Source: a virus (taxonomy: Duplodnaviria > Caudoviricetes). Taken from it: 62,859 bases of DNA. Both the position numbers and the translations under genes were made by a program. Shown in pieces: positions 2,640-21,066 of the stretch. The number at the start of each line of letters is the position of its first letter. The first letter of the stretch is position 1. Below the pieces are notes generated by a model, which was given only the letters and a program-made list of their open reading frames with translations, ran no database searches and was not told the origin of the DNA. Where the stretch lies: positions 1-62,859 of the IMG/VR virus record IMGVR_UViG_3300012665_000949. One strand, written 5' to 3'.

Positions 2640-2826
2640 CTGATTGCTCTACTTTCTTCGCAAGGTCTAGGAGATGACGCTCTGCGGTCGCAAGACCCTG
2701 AATGATTCCGCAGAGTTTTTGGTAATCGTCAAAAGTGCGGCATGCCCCACCCGCCAAGTCATCGGCGTAGTTGTTCATGTCGGTGCGTATTTTTTCGCGC
2801 AATACGCGTGCGAAGTCTTGGATCAT
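2632..2826 (-). CDS. Small hypothetical protein
   Basis: 64-aa ORF overlapping the portal stop and the GroES start. Confidence 0.7.
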   Translation of the reverse strand: MIQDFARVLREKIRTDMNNYADDLAGGACRTFDDYQKLCGIIQGLATAERHLLDLAKKVEQSDE

Positions 2827-5387
2827 TGGTCAGATTTTCCGGTTGGTTTTTGGGACTGGGCCAACAACTGCGCAGCACGCAACTGTTGGTCCGCTTTGCT
2901 CTTGGCAACATCAATGCCAATCTTCAGGCCCGCTTGACGATCGGCGGCGTCCATCTTGGACTTGCTTTCCTGAATCTGTGCTCCTACACGCAGGGCCTCC
3001 AGCTCCAACTGACCGCTGACCTTTTCCTGCTCCAGCTCTTGCTTGTCGGAGAGCGCGGCTGCGTCAATGGCCATCTTCTGCTGCTTCATCTGCATGTCTT
3101 GCTGGGCCATCTGGATTTTGGCCTGCTCGATCTGCATCTTCATCTGAGCTTCCTGCTGCTTGATCTGCACCTCCTGCTGCTTGATCTGCAGCTCTTGCAT
3201 CTGCATTTGCAGCACGGGGTCTTGCATCTGCTGCTGGGCCTGCATCTGGGCAGCTTGCGCTTGGCTTTGCTGCACCACCTGCTGAGCGGCCTGAGCCATC
3301 ATGGCCGACAGCGCGATCTCGATCTGTGGTGGCAGCTTCTCGTCTTCGGGCGGCAGGGGCATGCCCAACTGCGCCTCGATCTGCTGGCGCATCTTGAACC
3401 CCAAGTGCTCAGAGATGTGGGCCTGCGTCTCAGCCATGATTTTCTGCGCCTGTGGGTTTTGGCCAATCGTCTGCGCAATCATCGGGTCCTGCATCATCAT
3501 GTTGTGCACGGCCATGTGTGCGTCGTGGTTCTGGTGCAGGAACGCTTTGACCGGGCTGCCACGCAGGATGTTCTGGTTCTCAGACACGGGGTCCACCGGC
3601 TTCATGTCGTCCTCAAGCGGGATCAGCTTGTCGGCGTTTTTGATCCCCAGCACGTCGAGCATGCCGCGATGCAACTCGGGCAGGTCGTAAATGTCCGGGG
3701 CCATCTGCGCCATCTGGATCACGGCTTGGTACTGCACCACGCGCTGGCTGAGTGTGGCCGCGTTCGGATCGCTGACAGGCAGGATGTCCACGTGGCGGTA
3801 GTCTGCTGCCTTGGCGCGGGGGCCCTCTTCGCCGTCCGGCTCGTACGAATACTCGTCGTCCGTGTAGTCGCGGATGATCGCGGCCAGCAGTTGCAGCTCT
3901 TCCTTCAGGGCGTAGTGCACACGCGCCTGCACGGCGGTCATGACTTTCAACTGGCGCTCAAGCAGTGCCAGCGTGGAGCCCACAGGAGCGTTGGCCCCCA
4001 TGTCCGACACTTTCATGTCGGCCGTAGCCGCAAAGCGGCGACCTTCTTCCACCACGTTGCCCAGCAGTGTCATCAGAACCTGTGACGGCTCCTTGTACGG
4101 CAGGGGCAGGATGTTGTCGCGGATAGTGCCCGAGCCCACGTCCACATCGCGGAACTCGCCCGGAGCGATCGGCGTGTCGTCGCCCTTGATCCGAAGACCA
4201 CGGGACTTCAAACCACCGGGCAGGTTGGACAACGTACCCGCATCGATCAACTGACGCATCAAGCTGGTGGCCGACTTGGCAAACCCACCGATCAGGTGGA
4301 ACAGACCGAAGCCATACGCACCGAAGCCGGGGATGTACTGGTAGTGCACGAAGTGCTGGCGCTTTAAGTGCAGGTCATCATCTTCCCGCCAGTTGCGGCG
4401 CACAGACAGCACCGTGTTTGTACCCCGGATCATGGTGACCACGTACGGCAGAGCAATCTCTGCGTCGTCTTCGCACAGCGGGTCGGCCTTGAGGTACAGG
4501 TCAACGTGCGACTCGTACAGCGTAAAGCGGTCGTCGTTCAGGTCACTGAAACCTGTCTCTTTGTCCTTGGCCTTGTTGATTTCGCTGGTCGCTTTGTCGG
4601 GCTCCCCGATGTCCACATCAAGATAGAACCCCGCCTGCTGCAGCTTGACGATCTCGTTCTTGGTCTTGCGCATCTGGTGCGTGACGCGGTAGCAAGCCTG
4701 AATATCGGACGTGCCGTAGGGCAGCAAAATGTCTTCGGCCGGGATGAAGATCGACACTTGGCGGGCAAGATTGGGGTCAAAGTAGACCTTCTTGAACGCA
4801 GAGCCTGTGGCTGGCAGTGACCACAGCATGCGCTCGTGCTCGGCGCGGAACTCTTTCATCACCTCCGTGAGCTGGAAGTTCATGTCGTCGGCCACGCGCT
4901 GGGCAGCTTCCTTCTTCTCAAGCGTCTCTTTGCCCACGATCTTTGTGCGAACCGGGCCGACGGCAGGGAACGTCTCGGTGATGGTTTCTGACTGGAACCT
5001 TACAACTGCCTCTGTGATCATGGGGTGGAACACGCCACTGGCACCGTTCCACGGCTCCGTGCGCTCCTCCATGTTCAGGCCCAAGAGTTTCAAGCCCTCG
5101 GTGTAGGTTTTTTCCCAGTCCTTGCGGCTGTTGCGGTCGTTGTCGATGTCGCTGGCCAAGTCGCCTGCAAGCGACTGCAAAGCGCTGTCCGAGATGTATT
5201 CAGCCAAGTTGGCATCGAAGTCCTCAATGCTGGGCTCCCCCGGCTCGATGTCGATCTCCATGTCCCCAATCTTGATGCTGACCTCTTCGGGGTCAACAAT
5301 CTCAATCTCGATGGGGTCCATCTCTTCGGCTGCTGCCGCAATGCCCGTGGGCTGCTGGAACAGCGCCTTGTCGATATTCGTGGCCAT
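2823..5387 (-). CDS. Portal protein with long Gln-rich C-terminal coiled coil
   Basis: 854 aa directly after TerL; GSAFKKVYFD and GFGAYGFGLFHLIGG portal-like segments; P22-like barrel tail. Confidence 0.85.
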   Translation of the reverse strand: MATNIDKALFQQPTGIAAAAEEMDPIEIEIVDPEEVSIKIGDMEIDIEPGEPSIEDFDANLAEYISDSALQSLAGDLASDIDNDRNSRKDWEKTYTEGLKLLGLNMEERTEPWNGASGVFHPMITEAVVRFQSETITETFPAVGPVRTKIVGKETLEKKEAAQRVADDMNFQLTEVMKEFRAEHERMLWSLPATGSAFKKVYFDPNLARQVSIFIPAEDILLPYGTSDIQACYRVTHQMRKTKNEIVKLQQAGFYLDVDIGEPDKATSEINKAKDKETGFSDLNDDRFTLYESHVDLYLKADPLCEDDAEIALPYVVTMIRGTNTVLSVRRNWREDDDLHLKRQHFVHYQYIPGFGAYGFGLFHLIGGFAKSATSLMRQLIDAGTLSNLPGGLKSRGLRIKGDDTPIAPGEFRDVDVGSGTIRDNILPLPYKEPSQVLMTLLGNVVEEGRRFAATADMKVSDMGANAPVGSTLALLERQLKVMTAVQARVHYALKEELQLLAAIIRDYTDDEYSYEPDGEEGPRAKAADYRHVDILPVSDPNAATLSQRVVQYQAVIQMAQMAPDIYDLPELHRGMLDVLGIKNADKLIPLEDDMKPVDPVSENQNILRGSPVKAFLHQNHDAHMAVHNMMMQDPMIAQTIGQNPQAQKIMAETQAHISEHLGFKMRQQIEAQLGMPLPPEDEKLPPQIEIALSAMMAQAAQQVVQQSQAQAAQMQAQQQMQDPVLQMQMQELQIKQQEVQIKQQEAQMKMQIEQAKIQMAQQDMQMKQQKMAIDAAALSDKQELEQEKVSGQLELEALRVGAQIQESKSKMDAADRQAGLKIGIDVAKSKADQQLRAAQLLAQSQKPTGKSDQ

Positions 5388-5401: not shown

Positions 5402-6934
5402 TTAATAGTACGCAGCCCGGCGGGCTTGGTAGAAGCGCTCTTCTTGCTCGTCCGTGTCAAGCGGGATGAACCCGCCCCGGCGAAAGCGTAACAGCGCTTG
5501 AGATGTGGTGTCAACGAAGTCGTCGTTCTCCCCGTTGGGAAAGGACGCAACCTCCTCGATCACCTCGCGTGCCCACCGCTTGTCAGGTGCCCAGACCGAG
5601 CCCGAGGCAAAAAGGTCCGACACGGCGTTGAGCCGCACAATTTTATCGTTACCCCGGCTGGGGCTGAACTCTTCTACCGGTATGCCCACAGCCCGCAGCT
5701 CTTGGATCAGTGGGGCCCCGGCCGCTTTCTTTTCCACAATGAACGCGTCAGGCTCCCACTCTTTGTAGTGCTTGAGCGCGATCACCTTCAGCTCGGGGAA
5801 CGCCATCCGGTCCTTGAACGCGTCCAGCAGGATGACCTGCGCCTTGTCGTTCTCTTCCTCGTTGTAGAACACGCCCCACGTTGTGCACGCGGAGTAGTCG
5901 GCCGTGTTTGATGTCTCAAACGCCGTGTCCCAGCTCTGGATGATGTAGTCGCACCGGGGCGGGTCGTCTTTCTCCCACACACGCCAAGACTTGCGCGAGA
6001 TGATGGCCGCGTTGTTGCTGGTGGGCTGCTGCATGTACTGGGCGTTCCAGTACTGGGGGTCAATGCTGGCCTTGGTCGCCTTGAGGGTGGCCAGCGGCCA
6101 CTGCTCGGGCCAGAGCGACTTCTCGTTCTCCGTGTCCTCGTGCAAGATGGCCGGAAGCTCCACGATCTCCCACGGCTCGGCGTCGGGATTCTTGGCTTGG
6201 TAGTCGATCAGGCGGCCGGTCAGGTCCAACTTGCCCCAGCGCGTCATCACGATGATGACCGCCCCGCCCGGCATCAGTCGCTGGAGCGGCCCGGTCTGGA
6301 ACCAAGACCATGCAGTGTCGAAAGCCAGCCGTGAGTTGGCCTTAACGTCCTGCTCCGAGTGAGGATCGTCAATAACGAACAGGTCAGCACCACGACCAGC
6401 AAGAGCGCCGCCGACACCAGCAGCATAGTACTGACCACCAGCGCTTGTAGACCATTTACCGGCAGCTTTTTGATCGTCGGCCACCAGCGTTTGGGGGAAA
6501 AGTCCATGGTAGTCCTCGTCAGCAAGCAAATTTCGCACCCGACGGCCGAAGTCTTCCGACAAACCGGCGGTGTGCGTGCCCATGATGATCTTTTTCTCGG
6601 GGAAGTTGCCCAAAAAGAAGGCAGGGAACAGGTAGGAGCTGAACTCAGACTTACCCATACGGGGCGCGATGTTGATGATCACGCGTTTTTTGGTCCCGGC
6701 GATCACTTCGGTGAAGATTTTGGCCAGTTTCCTGTGGTGCGGCCCGACTTTAAAGCCCGGATACACCGACTTGGCGAACTCAATCATGTCCGAGCGGGCC
6801 AAATTCTTTTGTTTGTGCTCTTGCGCCTTGTCCAGCAGCTCCAACGCCTCCAACTTCTCGGCCGCTGTCAGCTTGCCAAGGTTTTTGAACAGCGCTGCGG
6901 CTTGCTCAGGCGTCAACGGCGGGTTGATTATCAT
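5402..6934 (-). CDS. terL: Terminase large subunit
   Basis: Walker A IAPRMGKS, Walker B LFVIDDP, coupling motif MTRW, nuclease QSWDTA and DDFVD. Confidence 0.95.
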   Translation of the reverse strand: MIINPPLTPEQAAALFKNLGKLTAAEKLEALELLDKAQEHKQKNLARSDMIEFAKSVYPGFKVGPHHRKLAKIFTEVIAGTKKRVIINIAPRMGKSEFSSYLFPAFFLGNFPEKKIIMGTHTAGLSEDFGRRVRNLLADEDYHGLFPQTLVADDQKAAGKWSTSAGGQYYAAGVGGALAGRGADLFVIDDPHSEQDVKANSRLAFDTAWSWFQTGPLQRLMPGGAVIIVMTRWGKLDLTGRLIDYQAKNPDAEPWEIVELPAILHEDTENEKSLWPEQWPLATLKATKASIDPQYWNAQYMQQPTSNNAAIISRKSWRVWEKDDPPRCDYIIQSWDTAFETSNTADYSACTTWGVFYNEEENDKAQVILLDAFKDRMAFPELKVIALKHYKEWEPDAFIVEKKAAGAPLIQELRAVGIPVEEFSPSRGNDKIVRLNAVSDLFASGSVWAPDKRWAREVIEEVASFPNGENDDFVDTTSQALLRFRRGGFIPLDTDEQEERFYQARRAAYY

Positions 6935-7517
6935 TGGTGGGGGTAGTGGTCGTGATTTCTGTGATGTCCGTCACGTCGGCGTCTGACACATCCATGAACT
7001 TGGCCAGCTTTTCCTTGAGGCGCTGGTCGATCTCGGCTTCCGTCATGTCGGTTTTCTTGACCTCGATCTTGTCGGTGAACAGCCCGATCTCTGTGACCTT
7101 GCCCAGCAGGCCCAGCGCTTTCAAGCGGATGTTGGCGTTGGGGCTTTCGCACTCCTCGACCAGTTTTGCCACCGCATACCCGCGCAGCTCCTTGGCTTGG
7201 TGCACAAACTCCCAGTCGTAGGCCGTCAGCATGCCCACCAGATGGCGCACGGCCGCTGGGGTCTCTATCTTGGAGACCATCTCGTGCTGTGTGGTGATGG
7301 GGGAGGCGGTTGTCAGCGCCGAGAAAGTTTCCCGGGCCTGCTGTTTCTCCAACTCGGAGACGGCTGTCTCGGCGTCAGGGACGCCCATTCCTTTAAGCCA
7401 GTCGTTGGTACTGATCTTGCCGTTCAGCAACTCAACGGGCGCAGTCTTCTCCGCCGGGGCGGGCGCTTGTGACTTAGGTAAAACTTCGGGGTCGAAGTCG
7501 AGAAGGTGGTCTAACAT
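6906..7517 (-). CDS. Probable terminase small subunit
   Basis: Directly upstream of and overlapping terL; helical C-terminus RLKALGLLGKV...LFTDKIEV; start at 7517 preferred over 7655. Confidence 0.6.
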   Translation of the reverse strand: MLDHLLDFDPEVLPKSQAPAPAEKTAPVELLNGKISTNDWLKGMGVPDAETAVSELEKQQARETFSALTTASPITTQHEMVSKIETPAAVRHLVGMLTAYDWEFVHQAKELRGYAVAKLVEECESPNANIRLKALGLLGKVTEIGLFTDKIEVKKTDMTEAEIDQRLKEKLAKFMDVSDADVTDITEITTTTPTNDNQPAVDA

Positions 7518-7574
7518 TTGTCCTGACGGGGTCTCAGCAACATTCTGTTGCCTGACCCTCCAAAGAGTTGCGGG

Positions 7575-7623
7575 TTGCTGTCCCGATGTGCAGAGTATAT
7601 ACTCACATCCGGCACTGGCGCAA
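7575..7623. promoter_or_regulatory. Overlapping divergent sigma70-like promoters sharing the palindrome GAGTATATACTC
   Basis: Plus: TTGCTG(7575-80)-N17-TATACT(7598-7603). Minus: TTGCGC(7623-18)-N18-TATACT(7599-94), pointing at terS. Confidence 0.6.
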
Positions 7624-7703
7624 CTTGTTGTTCCTCTGCTTTCTCCTTGGGTCAAGAGACCCTTTCAGCCCCGGCCAAAAGCCGGGGCTTTTTTTTTTTT
7701 TTT
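7610..7703 (+). ncRNA. Candidate anti-Shine-Dalgarno small RNA
   Basis: Promoter, pyrimidine tract CTGCTTTCTCCTTGG, hairpin GGGTC-AAGA-GACCC and intrinsic terminator; no credible ORF; tract complements many plus-strand RBSs. Confidence 0.6.
7667..7703 (+). terminator. Rho-independent terminator
   Basis: AGCCCCGGC-CAAAA-GCCGGGGCT 9-bp stem followed by a long T run. Confidence 0.9.
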
Positions 7704-7786
7704 GTGCCCGTGTTTTTTAAAATTTTTTAGAAATTTTTTGGTGGGGCTGTGTTTTTATACAGGGGGTGGGTTGCTGGATTTGGGAT

Positions 7787-7802
7787 TGTCCAATGTTTTA
7801 CA
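7787..7802. promoter_or_regulatory. Operator-like site family B (TGTC-N8-GACA), degenerate copy
   Basis: TGTCCAATGTTTTACA, similar to the sites at 14580 and 22661. Confidence 0.4.
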
Positions 7803-7990
7803 AACTGCTGGGAGCGGGAGGGGAATAGTGTTCTAGTGGGCCGGTCCTATCGCCCAACACAAGGCTTGGTGGGGGTACGGTGGGGTTTGGCTATGGGGCT
7901 TTGACCTTCTCCCAGACCCCCGAATGCTTTACTGTAGTTGTCAAGGGAACGGTTCCCAAGACATTCCTTCAACGCTCACAGGAGAAACTC

Positions 7991-8413
7991 ATGAGCATCC
8001 GCACTACTGCCAAGTCCATTGGCAACAAAGACGCCAGCACCGCTGAGCTGGCCATCGCAATCCGCAAAGCCTACGCCAAGGCCAAGCCGGAGCTGGCGCA
8101 GGAGATACGCGCCGACTTCCACATCGGCTACATCTCCGGGCGAGATAGACTTTCTATCTCTGATGCCGAAGCTATCTGGCTGGCAGGCAAGGGCGAGGGC
8201 GCAATCAACGCTCCGGCGATTGCGAGGGCAGTGGCCGCATGGAAATACTACGTGACTGACCACTTGCCCAAGGCCGATGCCGCACCCGCAAAGCATATGC
8301 GCATCAGCAAGGAGGCCCGAGCAATGGCGATGGACTTCCTTGGCAACTTCGAGGGCAAGAATCGCACAGAGCAGATCAAGCAAGCGATAGCTTTGCTCAA
8401 TGCACTCAAGTAA
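7991..8413 (+). CDS. Early hypothetical protein (first plus-strand gene)
   Basis: AGGAG RBS, start MSIRTTAK, Ala/Lys-rich helical sequence. Confidence 0.8.
   Translation: MSIRTTAKSIGNKDASTAELAIAIRKAYAKAKPELAQEIRADFHIGYISGRDRLSISDAEAIWLAGKGEGAINAPAIARAVAAWKYYVTDHLPKADAAPAKHMRISKEARAMAMDFLGNFEGKNRTEQIKQAIALLNALK
8143..8159. promoter_or_regulatory. Palindrome family A (AGATAGA-N3-TCTATCT)
   Basis: AGATAGA CTT TCTATCT, intragenic. Confidence 0.55.
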
Positions 8414-8415
8414 TC

Positions 8416-8432
8416 CGATAGGTTTTCTATCT
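8416..8432. promoter_or_regulatory. Palindrome family A
   Basis: CGATAGG TTT TCTATCT just after a stop codon. Confidence 0.55.
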
Positions 8433-8513
8433 CAAACACAACGGGCGTGGCTGGCCCGTTGTTCCTCCCCGTGTCTAACGCACTGGCCATGCGTATCTTT
8501 TGGAGAAACTTCC

Positions 8514-8627
8514 ATGACTAAACCTTCCCGCCTTCTGCTTGCGCTTTTGCGTGAGCACCGCCACACACCCAACTTGATGTGGCTTCGTCGCGCCGACAAC
8601 TGGCGTATCTACTACTCGCTGCTCTAA
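8514..8627 (+). CDS. Small early protein
   Basis: GGAGA RBS, MTKPSRLLL..., 37 aa. Confidence 0.55.
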   Translation: MTKPSRLLLALLREHRHTPNLMWLRRADNWRIYYSLL

Positions 8628-8639
8628 GGAGAAACTTCC

Positions 8640-8825
8640 ATGCACGACAACATCAACGCCCGCGATGCCAAGCGCATCCTTCACGGCCTGCACAACATCT
8701 TGCGTTGCGTCAGGCCGCACGACCTACGCACAGTGGCCAAGCACCTTGCTATGCACCACCACATCCCGCAGAAGGTCATGCTCACCGCAGTGGCCCGCTA
8801 CGCCCGCATCCACCACACCTACTAA
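8640..8825 (+). CDS. Small His-rich early protein
   Basis: AAGGAG RBS, 61 aa. Confidence 0.7.
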   Translation: MHDNINARDAKRILHGLHNILRCVRPHDLRTVAKHLAMHHHIPQKVMLTAVARYARIHHTY

Positions 8826-8835
8826 GGAGACAGCA

Positions 8836-9060
8836 ATGAGAAACCTCAAGCAACCCACCACAGAGACCGTCACCCAATGGCGTGACCAAGCAGGCGCACT
8901 CTGGTGCGCCCAGATACACTACCCACGGGGTAAGCATGACCCCTACTGGGTCGCAAGCGTTGCGATGGTAGGCACAACCATCTCGATACCCTGCGCCTCT
9001 ATGTCACAGCTCTGGCATGAGATCGGCATCCGCCAAAACAAGCCCCTGCCCGGCGCTTGA
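8836..9060 (+). CDS. Small early protein
   Basis: AAGGAG RBS, MRNLKQ..., 74 aa. Confidence 0.7.
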   Translation: MRNLKQPTTETVTQWRDQAGALWCAQIHYPRGKHDPYWVASVAMVGTTISIPCASMSQLWHEIGIRQNKPLPGA

Positions 9061-9076
9061 GATAGACAGTCTATCT
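9060..9076. promoter_or_regulatory. Palindrome family A
   Basis: AGATAGA CAG TCTATCT at a stop codon. Confidence 0.6.
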
Positions 9077-9095
9077 GGGGTACTTAAAATAATCA

Positions 9096-9413
9096 CTGTC
9101 CGGACTGTCCACTTACTTTCACGCCTGAAAGCAAAGCGTGGACGGCCGCAAACCCGCATGGTTGCGTGGTTCCAAGAAAACTGTCCTCTTCTTCTATATA
9201 TATTTATATAGATATAGAGAAGGAGAATTTGTTTTATATGTTGGCAGGTATGCACACACATATACACATGTATAAAATTAAAGGTGAAGTGTGTTGTCTT
9301 TTTATTTTGGCAAGAATAAGTGGACAGTAGCCTGAGAAACCTAGTAACCATGCGGGTTGCGGGCTGTCCGACATTTGCGTTAAGGCGTGAAAGAATTAGG
9401 ACAGTCCGGACAG
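9096..9413. repeat. ~90-bp imperfect inverted repeat flanking an AT-rich core (candidate replication origin)
   Basis: Arms about 9096-9190 and 9318-9413 share CTGTCCGGACTGTCC, CTTTCACGCCT and AACCCGCATGGTT blocks in inverted orientation; the core is very AT-rich. Confidence 0.75.
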
Positions 9414-9448
9414 ACCCTGTACAATGCGTAATTTTAAGGAGTAAAAGT

Positions 9449-10216
9449 ATGGAAGAAAACCTTCAACCCGCTTGGTTGGCCATGAACACGGCCCGTTTGG
9501 AGCGCCACTTGCGTGAGCACAAGTACCCTGTACCTGTGATGCGCGACATAATGCAGGCGGTTGCCTTGGCCAAGGCACGACAACGCAGGCAGAGAATCAA
9601 AGCCACTGTGTCGCACCAGTTGTGGGATGACATACTGCACGCCGCACGGGATGAGGTGGGCGTGGTGCGCACCATGAAGTCCCAATCCAAACGACACGCC
9701 GGGCCACCGGCCAGCAGTGCAGGGACAGTGGCCAAGTACAAGGCACTGTGTGCGTATGAGGACGTGCTCGTTGAGGTGGTCGCAAAGCTGGTCAAGCTAC
9801 AAAAGGCAGGCGAGTTTGCACCGGGGCAGTTCGTGGCCTTTATCAAGGAAGAGACGGGGCGCATCATCCCCAACAACGGTGAGCACTGGTCAGACTACGT
9901 CAGCGCCAAAGACAGACGCCACGTGTGTGCACTGTTCGATGACGTGCCCGATCCGATCAGGGGCAAGCGCAAGACCCCATTTGAGCGCCGCGTATCTCGT
10001 GAGGAGCACATCATCAAGCGTGCGTCCCTTGTGGGCCAGATGAAGAAAGCGCAGGACGACCTAGACATGGAGCGCAAGGTCACAACCATCCCCGAACTGG
10101 TAGCCGCACTGGACGCCCGAGAGATGGACTTGCAACGTGCCTACATTGCGCTCGATACCCTGAAACCAAACAAACCCGTGCCTGCACGGTGGCAGAGTTT
10201 GTGCAATCTCTTTTAA
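9449..10216 (+). CDS. Early hypothetical protein (helical, basic)
   Basis: AAGGAG RBS, start MEENLQP, 255 aa. Confidence 0.8.
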   Translation: MEENLQPAWLAMNTARLERHLREHKYPVPVMRDIMQAVALAKARQRRQRIKATVSHQLWDDILHAARDEVGVVRTMKSQSKRHAGPPASSAGTVAKYKALCAYEDVLVEVVAKLVKLQKAGEFAPGQFVAFIKEETGRIIPNNGEHWSDYVSAKDRRHVCALFDDVPDPIRGKRKTPFERRVSREEHIIKRASLVGQMKKAQDDLDMERKVTTIPELVAALDAREMDLQRAYIALDTLKPNKPVPARWQSLCNLF

Positions 10217-10219
10217 CCC

Positions 10220-10236
10220 AGATAGATTTTCTATCT
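10220..10236. promoter_or_regulatory. Palindrome family A
   Basis: AGATAGA TTT TCTATCT just after a stop codon. Confidence 0.65.
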
Positions 10237-10306
10237 GACCACTCAACCATGCAACGCCGCCCGCATGGTCGAGCCTACCTTCAAAGGGCGGCGAGGAGAA
10301 ACATCC

Positions 10307-10513
10307 ATGACTGTACTGACCGGATCACAGATCGAGGCGGCTCGCCTCTTAACCCTGCGTCAGATGCTCAAGCTGGAGATGAAAGGCATGAGCAAATCCC
10401 GTGGGCCAACGGCCTACTCAACGCTCAAGATGATGGGCTTCAAGGGCACTCGTGCCAGCGTGCTTGCCCAGCTTGACGCATGGCGTGACAACTTACTAGG
10501 AGAAAGCAAATGA
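10307..10513 (+). CDS. Small early protein
   Basis: GAGGAG RBS, MTVLTGSQ... Confidence 0.75.
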   Translation: MTVLTGSQIEAARLLTLRQMLKLEMKGMSKSRGPTAYSTLKMMGFKGTRASVLAQLDAWRDNLLGESK

Positions 10514-10719
10514 AAGCAATGGACTTAGACCACGACATGCTGCTCGATGCGGCACGACTGATGGAGAGCCAAGGCGGTAGCTTCGCAGGGCACATCGCCC
10601 GAGCGTTCTACTGCGCCGACAGCACCAACAGGGAGCGCCTACTCATAGCGTTCGATGACTTGTTCTGCAAGTACTACCGACAGCACCGCCTGTATGAACT
10701 CAACCAAGGAGAAATGTAA
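10510..10719 (+). CDS. Small early protein
   Basis: AGGAG RBS; GGSF...A...AD..N..RL..AF pattern common in phage early proteins. Confidence 0.75.
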   Translation: MKAMDLDHDMLLDAARLMESQGGSFAGHIARAFYCADSTNRERLLIAFDDLFCKYYRQHRLYELNQGEM

Positions 10720-11093
10720 TGAAGACAAGTGAACTGACAGGAGCCGCCCTTGATTGGGCGGTGGCGCAAGCCGAAGGGCTACTGGCCTTTGGATGGGAGG
10801 ATGACATGGGTCTGCTCAAGATCACGCTTTCCACTGGCGAGACCGAGTACTTCATACCGACCATGAAATGGGAGCAAGGCGGGCCGATCATTGAGCGTGA
10901 GTGCATCTGTATTCACCAGCGCATGGGCGAGACAGCATGGTGGGCAGACTACGCTAATCCGCAGGTTAAGCCCGACGGTACAGGCCATCGTTTTTTGTTT
11001 AAGCAAGCCCCCACGCCACTTGTCGCCGCCATGCGGTGCTACGTTGCATCCAAGATGGGTGCTGAGATTGACTTACCAAAGGAGCTGACATGA
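10719..11093 (+). CDS. DUF2591/NinX-like phage protein
   Basis: ELTGAALDWAVAQAEG, W.QGGPIIERE.I and TPLVAAMRCYVASK motifs. Confidence 0.7.
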   Translation: MKTSELTGAALDWAVAQAEGLLAFGWEDDMGLLKITLSTGETEYFIPTMKWEQGGPIIERECICIHQRMGETAWWADYANPQVKPDGTGHRFLFKQAPTPLVAAMRCYVASKMGAEIDLPKELT

Positions 11094-11323
11094 AAGACCA
11101 ACACTTCTTCGCCGCAAGCGCAATGCAGTGGGCAACGACCGACGAGACGCGAGACTTGCCCGCACTGCTCGACCTGATGAACAAGGACGGGTACACATAC
11201 AACCTGTTCAGTGTGCCCGTACCGCACACCACAGACTACAACATCAACATGTACCAGCCCCAAGTCGAGGGCACTGAGTGGCTTGGCACATTCACAGTGC
11301 CCAAGAAGAAAGCACGCAAGTAA
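11090..11323 (+). CDS. Small early protein
   Basis: AAGGAG RBS, ATGA overlap. Confidence 0.7.
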   Translation: MKDQHFFAASAMQWATTDETRDLPALLDLMNKDGYTYNLFSVPVPHTTDYNINMYQPQVEGTEWLGTFTVPKKKARK

Positions 11324-11326
11324 TCA

Positions 11327-11343
11327 AGATAGATTTTCTATCT
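11327..11343. promoter_or_regulatory. Palindrome family A
   Basis: AGATAGA TTT TCTATCT just after a stop codon. Confidence 0.65.
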
Positions 11344-11413
11344 GACGCCTTGATGGGTGGCGACCATACCGGTATACCCATCATTCCAAACTTGAAACTA
11401 AGGAGAAAGCAAA

Positions 11414-12832
11414 ATGCCTACATGGAAAAATCAAAACGCTGCCTACGAGTGGATGGACAATGTGTTCCTTGCCGCTGGGCGCATCGTCGCTGACGGCTTG
11501 CATGAGCGAATCAGCATGGGTAACTGGGTCGTTGTCCGTGCTGGTCGGCCGTGGTTCCGTCAGCAACGCGACCGCCACCAACTGCACCCTGCTGTGTACG
11601 ACATCATTGTCAAGCACCTGTACCGCCCCGAGGACTGGCAACAACTGCTGCTTGAGTGGCCACACAAGTCTCTGACTGACCCCAACCGCCTAGCCTACAC
11701 ACGCAACGAGCAAGCGGCTATGCACAACGGCGACAGCGATGCCAAGGCGGTCGTGACCACCATCGGTAAGTATCTGACGCGTCACTTCCCTGACGTATCG
11801 AGCAACCTTATCCGTGACATCACCGCGCAGTACACATACGGCGGCTCGACCATCATCGTCAAGGACATGGACAAGATGGTGCACGCAGTCATCCACGGGC
11901 CTCGCTCGTGCATGAGTAGCAGCTTCGACATCCTGTGCCACGACCGCGTGGAGCGTCATCCCTACGCTGTGTACGACCCAGCGCTTGGCTGGGGCATGGC
12001 TGTGCGGACTGACAGTGACGGCATGGTGCTGGGCCGTTGCCTTGTGCATGAGAGCGATGACGGCAAGGGGTTTGTGCGCTCATACAAACGTGAGCGTGAG
12101 TACAGCTCCCACTCAGGCACTGACGAGGCTATCGAGGCTTACTTGACGGGCTTGGGTTATGCCAAGTGGCGCGGCTGGCCTGACCACATACGGGTCATGC
12201 GCTACCCGCTACGCAATGAGGGGTACTTGATGCCCTACATCGACGGCGGCAACCAGCACGTTGAGGAAGACAGCGATGGTCAGTTCCGCATCTCAGACTA
12301 CAGCGGGTGGGAGGCGAGCAACACCAGCGGCATCATCAACGGCTACACCTGTACCTGCGATGACTGCGGCCAAGGCATGGACGAGGACGACAGCTACTCG
12401 ATCGGCTATCACGGTGACAGTCGTGTCGGCGAGTGCTGTATCGACAACTACACGAGGGTCACGGGTCGTAGGCGTGATGAGTACTATGTGGACAACGACC
12501 GCGCAGTGCGTGCGGACGATGAGTACTACGACAGCGAGTACCTTGACGACAACAACATCGTTGAGCTGCATGACGGTGAGTACACGCACAGTGACAACGC
12601 TGTGTACATCGAGTCGTGTGATGCGTACTACCATGTCGATGACGACGACATCGTTCACACCGAGGACTCAAACCAGTACGAGTTGCGCGAAGACTGCTGG
12701 TGCTGTGCTGAGTCAGGCAACTGGTACACCGACGACGAGGACAGCGTAGAGATTGACGGCAAGCTGTACCACCCCGACCATGCGCCTGAGCCTGAAGAAA
12801 CAACCAACGAAACTGATGGAGAAACAGCATGA
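11414..12832 (+). CDS. Hypothetical protein with acidic Tyr/Cys-rich repeat C-terminus
   Basis: 472 aa; SCM, GRCLV and PYID motifs; C-terminal D/E/Y repeats with CxxC. Confidence 0.8.
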   Translation: MPTWKNQNAAYEWMDNVFLAAGRIVADGLHERISMGNWVVVRAGRPWFRQQRDRHQLHPAVYDIIVKHLYRPEDWQQLLLEWPHKSLTDPNRLAYTRNEQAAMHNGDSDAKAVVTTIGKYLTRHFPDVSSNLIRDITAQYTYGGSTIIVKDMDKMVHAVIHGPRSCMSSSFDILCHDRVERHPYAVYDPALGWGMAVRTDSDGMVLGRCLVHESDDGKGFVRSYKREREYSSHSGTDEAIEAYLTGLGYAKWRGWPDHIRVMRYPLRNEGYLMPYIDGGNQHVEEDSDGQFRISDYSGWEASNTSGIINGYTCTCDDCGQGMDEDDSYSIGYHGDSRVGECCIDNYTRVTGRRRDEYYVDNDRAVRADDEYYDSEYLDDNNIVELHDGEYTHSDNAVYIESCDAYYHVDDDDIVHTEDSNQYELREDCWCCAESGNWYTDDEDSVEIDGKLYHPDHAPEPEETTNETDGETA

Positions 12833-13959
12833 ACAAACACACTATCCTGTACAAGACACTGGCCCGTGCCCTGTCGATGATGCGCCCACACAACAGCGAG
12901 GGTACACGCCGCTTGACTGACTGGCTTGAAGAACGTGCACACAAGCTACCCAACGCCATGATCTGGCGTGACGAGGCGGGCAACCTGCACGTTGACACAC
13001 GCTTGAGCGCATCCAACCGGACGCTGTTCGTGGCGCACGTTGACACTGTGCACCGCAAGGAAGGCCCCAACAAGATCAAGCAGACGCCAACCTACTGGTA
13101 CGCTGACGGTGCAGCTTTGGGAGCCGATGATGGGGCGGGCGTGGCGATGCTCATGCACCTGATGCACGCTGGTGTGCCTGCCTACTACATCTTCACGCAA
13201 GGTGAGGAGTGCGGCGGTATCGGTGCTACGCATCTGGCCAAGCACGACAGCAAGCTCCTGTCTGAGTTCGACCGGGCCATTGCCTTTGACCGCAGGGGTA
13301 TCGACAGCGTCATCACGCACCAAGGTCGTGGGCGTTGCTGCTCTGATGCGTTTGCCGATGCGCTCAGTGATGCGCTCAACGCTGACCTGACGCTCATGTA
13401 CCTGCCCGACAGCACTGGCGTGTACACCGACACGGCCGAATTCATCGAGGTCATACCCGAGTGCACCAACATCAGCGTGGGCTACTACTCTGAGCACAGC
13501 GACAAGGAGTCGCTCGACATCATCCACTTCCAAGCACTGGCTGACAGGGTTGCGCTCATCGACTGGGACAGCTTGCCTACTGACCGTGACCCGACTGTGG
13601 TTGAGTACCTAGACTGGGGGTGGGGGGCCCATGCGGGGACATCTCTGACGGGTGTCAGTGCTGTGGGCACGGGCGAGTGGGCCAACTGGCATCACCTGCG
13701 CGATGATGACGAGTGGGACTATGACTCCTACACCATCGAGCTTCAGGAGGCTTTGTACGATGCTCAGGCTGGCTCCAAGCAGTGGCTGATCGAGCTGATG
13801 TGTGAGTCCGTGTGGCCCGAAGACCCGGAGATGGCCGAGCGCCTGATCGACCGCAACAAGATAGACGAGCAGGTGCTTGCCACTGCGCTCAAGCACAGCG
13901 CAACGTATGACCCCACCGCTGTGCTGGCCGAGATATTCGACCAGTCCTACGCCAATTAA
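12829..13959 (+). CDS. Zn-dependent exopeptidase (M20/M28-like)
   Basis: AHVDTVH, LGADDGAG, GEECGGIG, AFDRRG and NISVGYYSEH metal-ligand motifs. Confidence 0.8.
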   Translation: MNKHTILYKTLARALSMMRPHNSEGTRRLTDWLEERAHKLPNAMIWRDEAGNLHVDTRLSASNRTLFVAHVDTVHRKEGPNKIKQTPTYWYADGAALGADDGAGVAMLMHLMHAGVPAYYIFTQGEECGGIGATHLAKHDSKLLSEFDRAIAFDRRGIDSVITHQGRGRCCSDAFADALSDALNADLTLMYLPDSTGVYTDTAEFIEVIPECTNISVGYYSEHSDKESLDIIHFQALADRVALIDWDSLPTDRDPTVVEYLDWGWGAHAGTSLTGVSAVGTGEWANWHHLRDDDEWDYDSYTIELQEALYDAQAGSKQWLIELMCESVWPEDPEMAERLIDRNKIDEQVLATALKHSATYDPTAVLAEIFDQSYAN

Positions 13960-13974
13960 CCAAGGAGATAGAAG

Positions 13975-14253
13975 ATGAAGAAAGTAAGCGATTCGGCCAA
14001 GGCCGCTGCGGTGATGCACTTTGTGTCTGACAGCGGAGACACGGCCCTCACGCCAGAGATGGCGGTGGAGTTGTTCAACGAGTTGGGCCAGACCTTCGGC
14101 CCGATCAATGGCGTGCTAGACAAGTACGAAATGACGCGCTGGAGTAGGTACGACAATGTGGACGACGCCGAGTGGTGGGAGCAGCTTGAGTTGCTGGCAC
14201 ATGTTATCGACGCCATGTTCGACTACTTTGAGTTTCCACCACAGGAGTTTTGA
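13975..14253 (+). CDS. Acidic hypothetical protein
   Basis: AAGGAG RBS, 92 aa. Confidence 0.7.
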   Translation: MKKVSDSAKAAAVMHFVSDSGDTALTPEMAVELFNELGQTFGPINGVLDKYEMTRWSRYDNVDDAEWWEQLELLAHVIDAMFDYFEFPPQEF

Positions 14254-14255
14254 CC

Positions 14256-14381
14256 ATGCCCAAATACAACGGGCCAGCCAAGCCCATACCCACGTACCGC
14301 GAACCCATCACCGACAGGGGTGAGCGTGTGATTTTTCTTTTGTTGGCCATCTTCATGGCCGTGTTTCTTTACTTGGAGTGA
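14256..14381 (+). CDS. Small membrane peptide (41 aa)
   Basis: AGGAG RBS; MPKYNG...VIFLLLAIFMAVFLYLE; below the ORF-track cutoff. Confidence 0.6.
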   Translation: MPKYNGPAKPIPTYREPITDRGERVIFLLLAIFMAVFLYLE

Positions 14382-14384
14382 ACT

Positions 14385-14600
14385 ATGAAAACACTTGACC
14401 AACTACAAGCCGAGCTTGAGCAGGCCATCAAGGACTGCGACCGCTACGACAGGCCCGCGCACGCTGTGCGTAACTGCCCGTCTGACCTGCAAAACTACGA
14501 CCAAGCGTGGCGGCGTAGGCGCAGTCTTGACTACCAAATCGCGGAATTGCAAAAAGAATTGCAAATTACCATTGACAAATGTCTAACGCTCGACAAATAA
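14385..14600 (+). CDS. Small coiled-coil protein
   Basis: GGAG RBS, 71 aa. Confidence 0.65.
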   Translation: MKTLDQLQAELEQAIKDCDRYDRPAHAVRNCPSDLQNYDQAWRRRRSLDYQIAELQKELQITIDKCLTLDK

Positions 14601-14601
14601 T
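14572..14601 (+). promoter_or_regulatory. Putative promoter with operator family B in its spacer
   Basis: TTGACA(14572-77)-N18-AATAAT; TGTCTAACGCTCGACA at 14580-14595. Confidence 0.5.
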
Positions 14602-14622
14602 CCCATTTCCAAGGAGAAAACT

Positions 14623-14826
14623 ATGAAAGAAAAAGCAACCCGCAAGCCGGTCTATCCATCTGTGCCTGTTCAAGACTTCAAGTGGACATCAGGCGCTGAT
14701 GTGCAAGCCACATGGCGCAAGTGGGGCTGGACGCCCCCATCTGAAGCGCTACCCCCACCACCCCCTGAGAAACCTATGCCCATTGCTGCTACCACAGCCG
14801 TGCCCCGCATCCATCGCTTTAAATAA
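14623..14826 (+). CDS. Small Pro-rich protein
   Basis: AAGGAG RBS; DVQATWRKWGWTPPS. Confidence 0.7.
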   Translation: MKEKATRKPVYPSVPVQDFKWTSGADVQATWRKWGWTPPSEALPPPPPEKPMPIAATTAVPRIHRFK

Positions 14827-14841
14827 CCTAAGGAGAATTTC

Positions 14842-15480
14842 ATGCCCGATATCAAAACTGCGCTTGAGAAGGCGCTTGCACAAACAGCAAACGCATGGGC
14901 CGCAGATGATGAAGCCCATCAACAAAGTCCACAACAGGAGAAACCCATGACTACCCTCGCCCCTATCACCACTCCAAAAGCCAAAACTTATGAGCGCAAC
15001 AACGTGTCGCGCACTACGTTCGAATACATCCGGAAAAATCCGGGCCTGACCGTTAACCAAATCATAGCCGCGCTTGTGGAGCAAGGGTTCAAAGAGACCT
15101 CGGTGTCATCTCTGTGCTATCAGATGATGCGGGTACGGTTGGTTGTGGCTGATTCCAACGGCAAGATGACCGCTGTGGTGCAGGAGTACGTGCCCATTCA
15201 ATCAAACAAACGCAGACGCAAGGCCAAGCCCAAAGCCAACGCCAAACCTGTGGCGGATGTGGCACCAGCGCCTATCAGAATCCAAAGAGACCTTACTGGC
15301 TTGCCATCACTGCGCAAGCATGTGGAGATAACCAACATTCGCACCGGAGAGGTCATCAATCCAAAGCCAGCACCCGCCCCTGCGGAGAAAGATTGGCAGC
15401 CTAGCGATGTGATCGACCAGTTATCCGTACGCCAAGCACTCGCGCTGTTCAAAGAGTTGCGCAACATTTTGGTGGGGTGA
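14842..15480 (+). CDS. Probable winged-helix DNA-binding protein
   Basis: TFEYIRKNPGLTVNQIIAAL...SVSSLCYQM wHTH-like segment followed by a basic tail. Confidence 0.55.
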   Translation: MPDIKTALEKALAQTANAWAADDEAHQQSPQQEKPMTTLAPITTPKAKTYERNNVSRTTFEYIRKNPGLTVNQIIAALVEQGFKETSVSSLCYQMMRVRLVVADSNGKMTAVVQEYVPIQSNKRRRKAKPKANAKPVADVAPAPIRIQRDLTGLPSLRKHVEITNIRTGEVINPKPAPAPAEKDWQPSDVIDQLSVRQALALFKELRNILVG

Positions 15481-15483
15481 AGC

Positions 15484-15576
15484 ATGAATACATGCAAACA
15501 CAGGTGGGAGCCCATCGAAGGGCCGGGTATGTACAAGTGCGCCCGATGCGGCGCATTCAGGAGGATTATCAAATGA
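15484..15576 (+). CDS. Mini zinc-finger peptide (30 aa)
   Basis: MNTCKHRW...YKCARCG; ATGA overlap with the next gene. Confidence 0.5.
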   Translation: MNTCKHRWEPIEGPGMYKCARCGAFRRIIK

Positions 15577-15809
15577 GCGACTCTTACGATGACTACTGCA
15601 TTCAGATGGCCCTTGTTGAGAAGGTAGTGGAAGAACAAGAAGCCCGGCGCAACTTCAGGACAGAGGTGTGGATAACAAAGGACGGGCGAAAGATTGCCAT
15701 CAAAGACATGGATGACAGCCACCTGTACAACGCATACAAACACAGCCAAAACAGTTTGATGTTCCGCGAGATGGTGCTGCGACTTTTTGAAGAAAGGATG
15801 AAGAAATGA
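15573..15809 (+). CDS. Hypothetical protein
   Basis: AGGAGG RBS; WITKDGRKIAIKDMDDSHLYN. Confidence 0.7.
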   Translation: MSDSYDDYCIQMALVEKVVEEQEARRNFRTEVWITKDGRKIAIKDMDDSHLYNAYKHSQNSLMFREMVLRLFEERMKK

Positions 15810-16084
15810 ACAACACAAACACAGGTGGGCCAGCGTTTCCAACGTCAGATTGGGACGAGAACGACAAAGCGTACAAGATGCACGGCATCACAGCCAGAGA
15901 TTACTTTGCGGCACACGCCACAGAGGAGGACATTTGCACGGCCATGAGTTTGGTAAAAAAAGTTGAGGTGGTGCGCGATCTGGGCAACGGACACAAAGTA
16001 ATCGAGAGGTGTTACCCGGAAAACACTCGACAAATTGCCAGATACATTCACGCAGACGCCATGCTGAAAGCGAGGGAAGCATGA
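15806..16084 (+). CDS. Conserved small phage protein
   Basis: GGPAFP...GITARDYFAA...ADAMLKARE pattern. Confidence 0.75.
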   Translation: MNNTNTGGPAFPTSDWDENDKAYKMHGITARDYFAAHATEEDICTAMSLVKKVEVVRDLGNGHKVIERCYPENTRQIARYIHADAMLKAREA

Positions 16085-16191
16085 TCGAAGACGAAGACAA
16101 GCCCACCCCAGCGGACGGGCAACTGGTGTGGGTGGTGGTGGCATTCATTGTGCTGATGCTGGGTTTGTTGACATTGAGGAGTTGTTTATGA
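16081..16191 (+). CDS. Small membrane peptide
   Basis: MIEDEDK...VWVVVAFIVLMLGLLTL. Confidence 0.55.
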   Translation: MIEDEDKPTPADGQLVWVVVAFIVLMLGLLTLRSCL

Positions 16192-16379
16192 CCCCCGAAG
16201 AACGTGAGAAGGCCATCAAGCGCAAGCCGTGGAAGTTCTGCCGCAAGTGCAAGTGCGACATCAAGTCGCCCACTCAATACTGCTATGACTGCTACAAGGG
16301 TCATAACTTTACCGCCAGCCCATATGGGCTGATCAACGCAAACAAGGCGTTTAAATTTGTACCTTCGGAGAACAGATGA
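16188..16379 (+). CDS. Small zinc-finger protein
   Basis: GAGGAG RBS; CRKC...CYDC. Confidence 0.6.
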   Translation: MTPEEREKAIKRKPWKFCRKCKCDIKSPTQYCYDCYKGHNFTASPYGLINANKAFKFVPSENR

Positions 16380-16579
16380 AAACTGTATTTGAACTGATAG
16401 AAGCCAACGGGCTGACCTTGCATGGTGACATTGAACACTTTGCAGAGCTTGTCCGTGCCGAAGCACAGCGCACATTCGTGCCGGATGCCATGACCCACGA
16501 TGAAGGCGAGACCGTACAGTACGTGGCTGGCTGGAACGATTGCCGTGAATTAATGTTGAGAACAAGGAACCCTAAATGA
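16376..16579 (+). CDS. Hypothetical protein
   Basis: ATGA overlaps; YVAGWNDCR motif. Confidence 0.65.
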   Translation: MKTVFELIEANGLTLHGDIEHFAELVRAEAQRTFVPDAMTHDEGETVQYVAGWNDCRELMLRTRNPK

Positions 16580-16761
16580 AATGTAAATGCCGCACCGACT
16601 CGCCCTTTCACTGGGCGCACAACCCACAGCCGAGCATCTTTGTGAAGGATGTTTACTTCCGAGCCAAGAATGTAGTTGCGACAACTGACTACCGGGCTTT
16701 CGGTATATACAGTAGGGCCACGCCGCACATCAAACCGCAGCTCAACAAGCACGAACTATGA
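16576..16761 (+). CDS. Hypothetical protein
   Basis: ATGA overlaps on both sides. Confidence 0.55.
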   Translation: MKCKCRTDSPFHWAHNPQPSIFVKDVYFRAKNVVATTDYRAFGIYSRATPHIKPQLNKHEL

Positions 16762-19827: not shown

Positions 19828-19842
19828 CCAAGGAGAAAGCAA

Positions 19843-20816: not shown

Positions 20817-20817
20817 T

Positions 20818-21051: not shown

Positions 21052-21066
21052 CTACCGGAGAAAGCA

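Follow-up and report, generated by a model that had tools for sequence, protein, structure and literature searches.

What does a strong intrinsic terminator serve when no plus-strand gene leads into it? The question is raised by positions 7575-7703 of IMG/VR record IMGVR_UViG_3300012665_000949, a phage genome (Duplodnaviria; Caudoviricetes) of 62,859 bp that was analysed whole and is referred to below as the window. A first-pass annotation, made from the letters alone, proposed that this locus encodes a phage small RNA (sRNA) complementary to the extended ribosome-binding sites that precede the early and replication genes of the same genome. What that annotation states about the sequence holds with small corrections, and its interpretation is supported in part. 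The analysis described here indicates that the locus is very probably a genuine, conserved and structured plus-strand sRNA gene with an anti-Shine-Dalgarno seed. The terminator would accordingly not be one without a gene, and the unit reads as a real sRNA gene that host RNA polymerase would transcribe. That the RNA acts in trans to repress the early and replication regulon of the phage itself is the preferred interpretation, with a probability of roughly 0.5.

The unit comprises a promoter-like site, a predicted transcript with three hairpins and a terminator whose T-run contains 15 T (7689-7703); its parts are listed in Table 1. Folded from 7611, the RNA reaches -36.5 kcal/mol (z = -3.7). The TTGCTG-N17-TATACT promoter, the GGGTC-AAGA-GACCC hairpin and the terminator all lie exactly where the first-pass annotation had placed them, and the core that it singled out, 7636-7651, is the reverse complement of CCCAAGGAGAAAGCAG. 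This core had been described as unpaired throughout, which does not hold: only 7641-7648 are free in the predicted fold, with UGCU (7637-7640) closing hairpin 1 and GGG (7649-7651) opening hairpin 2. The claim that the unit lacks a credible open reading frame (ORF) also needs qualification. Plus-strand ORFs do run mechanically across it (7231-7836, with 201 amino acids; 7548-7730; 7568-7720), but in relatives they are interrupted by indels of 1 nt and of other lengths not divisible by three, and they are not conserved as coding sequence. Trans-acting sRNAs of the type that uses a chaperone (Hfq) have their own promoter, an accessible seed, an intrinsic terminator and a long U-tail following a U-rich linker. 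All of these are present here, and the U-run is at least 6 nt long in the 75 units compared below. The order of hairpin 1, seed, hairpin 2, U-rich linker and terminator is the usual one for chaperone-dependent trans-acting sRNAs, and the predicted RNA may use a chaperone as well.

Further evidence for an RNA gene comes from related phages. A search of IMG/VR with the proteins of terS and terL, the genes to the left of the unit, returned 152 loci, from which units were picked by position alone: the 74 of 80 terS loci that have at least 250 nt upstream, together with the window, give 75. The same unit is found in the same place, divergent from terS, in all 75 fragments, always with a GCUU(U)CUCC seed, and the 75 units are 75 distinct sequences. 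A covariance model (R1), built on 16 close sequences and a hand-written structure, finds exactly one match per source in 75/75 sources (586,648 bases), with scores from 103 bits in the window down to 30. An alignment of all 75 units with MAFFT and RNAalifold yielded just three pairs, with the hairpins misaligned, and pairs were therefore counted in an alignment made with R1. This alignment is fitted to the hand-written structure, and the following figures are biased towards that structure. Paired cells amount to 88.5%, versus 72.0% after shuffling (none of 500 shuffles reaches the observed value) and 47-61% when partners are slid, and changes on both sides are seen in 16 of 23 pairs (255 cells). 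The share of paired cells is 92% in helix 1; helix 2 shows compensatory changes in three of its five pairs, helices 3 and 4, which make up hairpin 2, show changes on both sides at all five pairs, and eight of the nine pairs of the terminator stem covary. Insertions within hairpin 1 of relatives are confined to the position after GCAA. The drop in pairing when partners are slid, together with the variety of pair types, makes the hairpins convincing despite the fitted alignment. The strand is assigned as plus because the first pair of helix 1 is predominantly G-U (47 of 74 rows) and would turn into an A-C mismatch if the minus strand were the RNA, and because a T-run follows the GC hairpin in 75/75 units on the plus strand only. 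With the promoter spacing kept, the stems covarying and a single R1 match in each relative, the self-contained plus-strand RNA gene of the first-pass annotation is well borne out.

The predicted targets lie in the plus-strand early and replication block. Exact matches of at least 10 nt to the complement of the core number nine on the plus strand, all of them just before starts between 10.5 and 25.1 kb, and on the minus strand only the locus itself is found. In 200 first-order Markov sequences, with both strands counted together, the mean is 0.6 and the maximum 3. When up to three mismatches over 16 nt are permitted, there are nine matches versus 0.84 expected, and 0 of 100 shuffles reach nine. 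The exact matches include every match of 10 nt or more listed in the first-pass annotation, and one more at 25061. This additional match lies inside the primase/helicase frame that opens at 24862, where an internal ATG at 25072 is preceded by CCAAGGAGAA and may be the true start of that gene.

The early sites also differ from the late ones, as had been claimed from the first pass: GGAGAAA is present at 14 of 35 early versus 1 of 25 late GGAG-type start sites (Fisher p=0.0012). Duplexes with the 12-nt core have a median energy of -10.6 kcal/mol at early and -8.1 kcal/mol at late sites (p=0.0018), and -12 kcal/mol or better is reached at 10/35 and 1/25 sites, respectively. When GGAUCACCUCCUUUCU, the 16S tail in the putative host genus, serves as the probe instead, early and late sites do not differ (p=0.70). 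Because the two classes differ with the sRNA core and not with the 16S tail, the complementarity of the early sites exceeds the Shine-Dalgarno core. An earlier energy test, with a 23-nt probe and heuristic starts, gave no difference between early and late genes (p=0.17); it was judged flawed, as many starts had been mis-picked and G/C-rich flanks produced spurious duplexes, and was redone with GGAG-type sites and the conserved 12-nt core. Among random 6-nt extensions of CUCCUU, 5 of 400 are as good as the real one. The proposal that the AAAGCA extension is the specific signal is supported by this early-specific pairing, but one part of its partner in the RNA, UGCU, is paired within hairpin 1 in the predicted fold.

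The same motif marks the early genes of relatives. In 71 distinct early regions, the 5-mer that most often follows GGAG at early starts is AAAGC (98 of 544 sites; the next, AAACT, has 61), mostly continued as AAATG; in late regions AAAGC stands at only 2 of 102 sites. Five relatives of at least 96% completeness contain AGGAGAA-N3-8-ATG 72 times on the early strand and three times on the other, where two of the three are the complement of the sRNA locus. The motif is thus longer than the Shine-Dalgarno core and is repeated directly before starts in gene orientation. Its extension does not pair with 16S rRNA and is rare in the putative host genus, an assignment that is itself uncertain. On these comparisons the motif is a start-associated sequence (SAS) of the early module, of which the predicted sRNA carries the complement. 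The seed remains invariant while hairpins and linkers drift, which was counted in favour of a functional link. The first-pass annotation had cautioned that the Shine-Dalgarno part alone may be host-typical. If the putative host genus is the correct one, the extended motif is no more frequent there than by chance: AAGGAGAA(N)GCAA has nine matches, in 7 of 41 putative host-genus genomes, versus nine control matches. Similarly, AAGGAGAAA-N2-6-ATG occurs 9, 6 and 3 times in host-genus genomes of 2.9, 3.7 and 1.9 Mb and five times in the 62.9-kb phage, a density of such start sites about 25 times higher in the phage.

Other start-site classes recur in the relatives, among them AGGAGAAACATCCATG and AGGAGAAACTTCCATG. 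In G051 (39.4-42.7 kb) and other relatives the exact start strings AGGAGAAGAACACATG and AGGAGAACACATG alternate several times at intervals of about 500-600 nt, a pattern suggestive of paralogous small early genes arranged in tandem.

The promoter of the unit was compared across 50 distinct promoter regions of relatives. On the plus strand, TTG stands at a 17-nt spacer in 48/50 and at 18 nt in 2/50, and the -10 hexamer is TATACT in 33 and TACACT in 17. This hexamer lies within the palindrome AGTATATACT, which occurs once in the window. On the minus strand a TAnnnT hexamer is found in 50/50 regions, with TTG at a spacer of 18 nt in 35, 17 nt in five and 19 nt in five (45/50 in total), and the implied 5' untranslated region of terS has a median length of 33 nt (range 27-70). 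The GCAA that carries the minus-strand -35 is near-invariant, and since some relatives have it in a stem and others in a loop, its conservation is better explained at the DNA level. The -10s coincide on the two strands and properly spaced -35s lie on both sides, as in a symmetrical bidirectional promoter, which suggests one common to the sRNA and the late terS operon. Bidirectional promoters at which one polymerase binding event excludes the other have been described in bacteria, according to the accessible parts of PMC12825309 and bioRxiv 10.1101/2020.01.31.928960.

The unit is also missing from some close relatives, and sRNA-like units occur in some more distant phages. Three fragments with a terL identity of 95-98% (L083, at 4130-4720, L084 and L086) have no sRNA gene, and their early regions contain no GGAGAAAGC, the start sites being mostly TGGAGC/T. 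All three have a different terS N-terminus and a non-homologous early module, a difference that amounts to a swapped module, one breakpoint of which falls within terS. In the other direction, a pattern scan of IMG/VR produced at least 120 matches. Among the matches listed, 76 are new loci, of which 61 are divergent from a terS homologue and 15 have none; nine of these 15, again among the matches listed, match R1 at E <=0.01. The distant units of Table 1 have a similar promoter (GCGGGTTGC...TACACT in L207) and lie at a convergent junction, between the end of a plus-strand replication-block gene of about 950 amino acids and the end of a giant minus-strand gene. The sRNA gene seems to move between junctions, and if the distant units are true relatives, targeting of the phage's own genes would not be universal for the family.

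Taken together, these features can be accommodated in a model in which the foot of hairpin 1 opens and the seed extends into UGCUUU, which would then pair with AAGGAGAAA(GCA). This target covers the Shine-Dalgarno site and spacer of at least a dozen early and replication genes. Once paired, these mRNAs would be closed to the 30S subunit and might also become open to decay. The late genes would escape: their Shine-Dalgarno sites are equally strong for the ribosome but lack the A-rich/GC extension. Because the sRNA promoter shares its palindromic -10 with the divergent terS promoter, synthesis of the RNA would be mechanically coupled to transcription of the late operon, the two being either co-fired or in competition for the polymerase site. 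The whole would amount to an RNA counterpart of T4 RegA/RegB in the shut-off of early translation. What the sequences show is the anatomy of the gene, its strand and conservation, the covarying stems, the invariant seed and the pairing potential specific to early sites; production of the RNA, its timing, its use of a chaperone, repression, the start position of the transcript and the coupling of the promoters are what we infer. A wider form of the model is held more tentatively, at somewhat less than even odds: a lytic freshwater clade would encode the RNA ligand of its own start-associated sequences, an sRNA of about 90 nt made from the promoter of the late packaging operon, which would silence the whole early and replication class, including, since the clade has seed and motif in common, that of related superinfecting phages. 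Dormancy, immunity and action on host mRNAs, also mentioned in the first-pass annotation, are speculation.

Several observations weigh against repression of the phage's own genes. In the predicted fold, the UGCU that should pair with the AGCA extension is itself paired, as is GGG, leaving 8 nt alone free. The sRNA promoter scores 8/12, under the threshold of a consensus scan that called 0 promoters in 6500-9000. Covariation between the seed and the extension of the ribosome-binding sites, which the first-pass annotation had anticipated, appears in seed length. The seed has either two or three U, and in 38 early-region clusters the counts of GGAGAAAGC and GGAGAAGC are 52 and 3 with the three-U seed and 26 and 14 with the two-U seed; the association, which speaks for a functional link, is modest (cluster-level Mann-Whitney p=0.015), phylogeny is not fully corrected for, and relatives with a two-U seed still have mostly GGAGAAAGC targets (43 vs 20 in raw counts). 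At the base after CUCCU, which may be U, C or G, no covariation was found: the sites stay AAGGAG, and the AA fraction of early sites is 0.42, 0.46 and 0.52 in the three classes. Covariation 5' of GC is weak, with 58 three-nt matches versus 35.4 when permuted (60 of 2000 permutations reach 58). Downstream of the seed complement, 34/75 units have an ATG at the distance usual for a start codon, and the locus could be descended from, or double as, an inverted start site, in which case the extension would be shared by descent. Because the whole adjoining early module has been swapped in the three fragments that lack the sRNA gene, the absence of the start-site signature there perhaps reflects mere linkage. 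The two larger fragments with distant units, of 33.7 kb (53% complete) and 22.3 kb (36% complete), contain 0 AGGAGAA-N3-8-ATG sites. A freshwater metatranscriptome (share of words 0.08) contains low-depth contigs of relatives over terS and early genes, in which the bins at 7607-7808 have no cover; giving neither strand nor ends, the contigs speak neither for nor against expression of the RNA. Finally, the host assignment is weak evidence: it derives from three short contigs of relatives that were binned in metagenome-assembled genomes (MAGs) labelled Burkholderiaceae, Limnohabitans and Phycisphaerales.

The host is central to one rival explanation, a rather unlikely one, in which the RNA is real and directed at the host as a general or gene-specific anti-Shine-Dalgarno sRNA, comparable to the Burkholderia double-hairpin RNAs, that damps host translation or one particular mRNA of the host during takeover, the match to the phage's own sites being secondary. 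The sub-threshold matches to RF02278, RF02837 and RF00519, sRNAs with CU-rich seeds, would fit this explanation, as would the attenuated growth on overexpression of one RF02278 member that is reported in the accessible part of PMC5688073. Units with the same seed also occur in phage fragments without AGGAGAA start sites of their own, and each putative host-genus genome offers 3-9 AAGGAGAAA-N2-6-ATG sites. The extended target is nevertheless at chance in the 41 host-genus genomes (9 vs 9 control), the start-site 9-mer is about 25 times denser in the phage, and the seed-length variant tracks the target variant of the phage itself; as the identity of the host is uncertain, the host-genome test is weak in both directions. 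No closer host homologue of the phage sRNA was found in the putative host-genus genomes than matches of 22-28 bits, in 17 of 41. Separately, positions 1500-1575 of a Burkholderiaceae MAG contig (L161) contain a candidate host sRNA, with an unpaired CCCUCCUCCUUUGCUUCU and a terminator, that scores 26 bits against the phage model. A further explanation, distinctly improbable, is that only the DNA matters: rightward transcription from a symmetrical bidirectional promoter would compete with, or insulate, the terS and early promoters, with the short RNA as a by-product that the terminator cuts off at once. The -10 inside a perfect palindrome and the fixed spacers of both promoters (plus strand 48/50 at N17; minus strand 45/50 at N17-19) are as this would have them, and mutually exclusive bidirectional promoters have precedents in the two sources cited above. 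A by-product, however, would not be expected to retain an invariant single strand of 8-9 nt in 75/75 units or to keep two non-terminator hairpins via compensatory changes (helices 2-4), and promoter competition leaves the early-specific complementarity unexplained. The arrangement is in any case compatible with an sRNA, and is a rival solely if the RNA has no function.

Two other explanations concern how the motif is read. There is a small chance that the early motif is recognized by a protein (RegA-like, RegB-like or a host factor), with the RNA shielding the sites or acting elsewhere. T4 RegB and RegA provide a precedent in the accessible part of PMC3014915, and in that of PMC3203893 the ligand of the Cluster K start-associated sequences is given as 'RNA or protein'; moreover, a second early class, GGAGAAACT(TCC), accounts for 61/544 sites and matches the RNA over at most 9 nt. 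Yet no RegA-like or RegB-like match was found among 18 proteins scanned, a set that leaves most early proteins outside, and the simpler candidate for the ligand is an RNA that has the exact complement and is encoded adjacent to the early module. The chance is smaller still that the motif acts on the minus strand, as the ribosome-binding site of a mini-ORF or leader in the late transcript, the complementarity then being that of one more family start site. In the 34 units mentioned above, a spacer of 5-7 nt separates GGAGAA(A)GCA from the ATG, and other units have GTG (three) or TTG (six) there. A 197-nt RNA-library contig of a relative runs from the terS start through the -10 to 35 nt of hairpin 1, but it is unstranded, with a depth of 3.5 and possible DNA carry-over. 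There is, however, no start codon in 32/75 units, including the window, and the peptides are unlike one another in frame, in length and in sequence. Only on the plus strand does a U-run come after the GC hairpin, the G-U pair would be A-C on the minus strand, and the conserved minus-strand promoter would start the terS mRNA downstream of the motif. Repression of the phage's own early genes by a trans-acting sRNA thus remains the preferred reading.

The window is a whole phage genome with three gene blocks. The minus-strand structural block runs from 7517 down to 1 and resumes from 62859 down to 27960, the plus-strand early and replication block spans 7991-27837, and the sRNA unit sits in the divergent control region of 470 bp that separates terS from the first early gene. 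The gene in the terS position has its start codon kept as CAT in every position-chosen fragment, and relatives align over residues 1-203; its protein has no PHROG match and no tblastn match. No tRNA genes were found in the window, no Rfam family reaches its gathering score anywhere in it, and 7000-8400 has no DNA similarity to isolated phages. The nearest isolates are distant (terL identity at most 52.8%; DSL-LC04 and Pelagibacter phages), and the isolates DSL-LC04 and HTVC027P have no credible match to R1 (E 0.02-0.9). A protein of 3216 amino acids (27960-37610, minus strand) matches only phrog_18222, of unknown function, over its last 650 residues. An N4-like transcription scheme, which this protein had raised, was rejected, with phrog_18222 as the only match and no RNA polymerase among the proteins scanned.

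The two sides of the unit show some further variation. The terS leader contains a 45-nt hairpin-forming insertion (7520-7564), which is also present in four relatives (L010, L017, L018 and L021) and absent or replaced in others; an RNA-library contig of a relative skips exactly 7519-7565. On the minus strand at 7517-7560 there is a 10-codon frame with an ATG at about 7546, whose TAG overlaps the terS ATG (AAATGTTAG), and distant relatives have a 4-codon frame with the same terS-overlapping end (ATGCGCCAATGCTAG). These short frames may represent translational coupling, or chance. On the other side, directly after the terminator, 7704-7745 consists of phased T/A tracts (TTTTTT-AAAA-TTTTTT-AGAAA-TTTTTT) that are kept in many relatives. 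Other relatives have in this place a 16-nt palindrome of the type TGTCTAACGTTAGACA, overlapping a near-consensus early promoter (TAGACA-N18-TATAAA), which looks like an operator.

Table 1. Features of the sRNA locus, its predicted targets, selected genes of the window and distant sRNA-like units (positions are those of the window unless another fragment is named).
Feature	Positions	Strand	Remarks
-35-like hexamer TTGCTG, sRNA promoter	7575-7580	+	followed by 17-nt spacer
-10 TATACT, sRNA promoter	7598-7603	+	
Palindrome AGTATATACT	7594-7603	both	perfect, 10 nt; holds -10s of both divergent promoters; minus-strand TATACT is complement of 7594-7599
-35-like TTGCGC, putative terS promoter	7618-7623	-	18 nt from minus-strand -10; plus strand reads as conserved GCAA of hairpin 1
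Predicted sRNA	7610-7703	+	about 88-94 nt; putative start 7 nt past -10; end inside U-run
Hairpin 1	7611-7640	+	outer stem GGCA/UGCU; takes in 5' end of core 7636-7651
Single-stranded seed UUCUCCUU (anti-Shine-Dalgarno)	7641-7648	+	unpaired in minimum-energy fold
Hairpin 2, GGGUC-AAGA-GACCC	7649-7662	+	
U-rich linker (UUUC)	7663-7666	+	between hairpin 2 and terminator
Intrinsic terminator	stem 7667-7689, to 7703	+	9 pairs (8 G-C), 5-nt loop, U-run
Best predicted target CCAAGGAGAAAGCA	19828-19841	+	14-nt exact complement, before ATG 19843
Predicted target	11400-11411	+	12 nt exact, before ATG 11414 (472-aa gene)
Predicted target	10498-10508	+	11 nt, before ATG 10510
Predicted target	10704-10714	+	11 nt, before ATG 10719
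Predicted target	14609-14619	+	11 nt, before ATG 14623
Predicted target	21057-21067	+	11 nt, at GTG 21067 (helicase, phrog_62)
Predicted target	22684-22694	+	11 nt, before ATG 22695
Predicted target	17825-17834	+	10 nt, before TTG 17842 (DNA polymerase, phrog_17)
Further match	25061-25070	+	10 nt, before ATG 25072 within 991-aa primase/helicase frame
terS-position gene	6906-7517	-	203 aa, ATG at 7517; opens structural block; divergent from sRNA
terL	5402-6934	-	just downstream of terS-position gene
Portal	2823-5387	-	
DNA polymerase	start TTG 17842	+	phrog_17
Helicase	start GTG 21067	+	phrog_62
Primase/helicase	start 24862 or 25072	+	991-aa frame
Distant sRNA-like units	L194 5948-6038; L207 2824-2915; L200 2216-2287; L191 4344-4434		selected by seed; R1 27-31 bits

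Bacterial sRNAs with an anti-Shine-Dalgarno seed are already known, as are a few phage RNAs that mask a single ribosome-binding site. A phage sRNA matched to a start-site motif shared by a whole temporal class of genes was not found in searches of open-access papers and bioRxiv preprints. If the preferred reading is true, one RNA would perform the early shut-off for which T4 uses two proteins, the start-associated sequences left open in mycobacteriophages would gain a testable ligand, and the promoter arrangement would tie synthesis of a regulator to the firing of the late operon. The system is compact, with one RNA and short targets, and at least 120 pattern matches attest to its abundance in freshwater viromes. 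Should the regulatory model fail, there would still be a well-supported new family of structured RNAs from uncultured phages.

The closest phage RNA appears to be c4 of P1. The c4 RNA of P1 and P7 (RF01695) is a small phage RNA that pairs at the ribosome-binding site of a phage gene and blocks its translation in trans; it is part of the immunity region in temperate phages, arises by processing from the operon under its own control and has essentially one target. Unlike c4, the present unit is a stand-alone gene with its own promoter and terminator, and at least a dozen unlinked start sites share its target; RF01695 is not among the Rfam matches in the window. Cis-antisense RNAs of the sar/OOP type overlap a transcript of the opposite strand. 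Here the terS mRNA is predicted to begin about 20 nt left of where the sRNA would start, in which case the two predicted transcripts would not overlap; one unstranded RNA-library contig bridges the region.

Among bacterial RNAs, all Rfam matches, the first three of those given here being on the plus strand, remain below their gathering scores: RF02278 at 31.1 bits (E 2e-4 over 501 nt; gathering 50), RF02837 anti-hemB at 28.4 (49.5), RF00519 mmgR at 26.2 (41) and RF02871 ncS54 at 22.8 (43). The sub-threshold matches are to betaproteobacterial sRNAs. The Burkholderia double-hairpin RNAs have CU-rich unpaired stretches complementary to ribosome-binding sites, as the accessible part of PMC5688073 describes. 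Like RF02278, the 'toxic' sRNAs with which the Neisseria NmsRs have been compared, the present RNA has an unpaired CU-rich stretch, UUCUCCUU, and UCUCC, the UUCA linker and the terminator are where the window aligns to the RF02278 model. Members of RF02278 have two hairpins, about 57-92 nt and one or two CU stretches, whereas this RNA has three hairpins, about 90 nt and one CU stretch, is encoded by a phage and has its best predicted targets in the phage's own genes. On threshold and architecture it is not a member of RF02278, although it is similar by design.

The functional parallels are with phage systems. In T4, proteins inactivate early mRNAs, RegB by cleaving GGAG and RegA by binding to about 30 start regions (PMC3014915, accessible part). 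The proposed role is likewise a global shut-off of early mRNAs at their start regions that spares late mRNAs, but the effector would be an RNA, with specificity provided by base pairing with the extension of the Shine-Dalgarno site. An sRNA of lambda has been reported to act on the host replication machinery, according to the accessible text of bioRxiv 10.1101/2024.10.31.621285; both would be phage-encoded, base-pairing sRNAs of lytic growth, while the strongest predicted partners here are phage genes. The nearest parallel to the target motif is found in the Cluster K mycobacteriophages, whose start-associated sequences are described, in the accessible part of PMC3203893, as longer than the Shine-Dalgarno core, placed before starts, partly unable to pair with 16S rRNA and rare in the host. 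In the same way, sites of the GGAGAAAGCAAATG type recur before early starts, with an extension that does not pair with the 16S tail, although the sequence, the phage group and the host phylum are all different. For Cluster K no complementary RNA gene is reported in that part of the source, whereas here one is found in the same genome as the motif.

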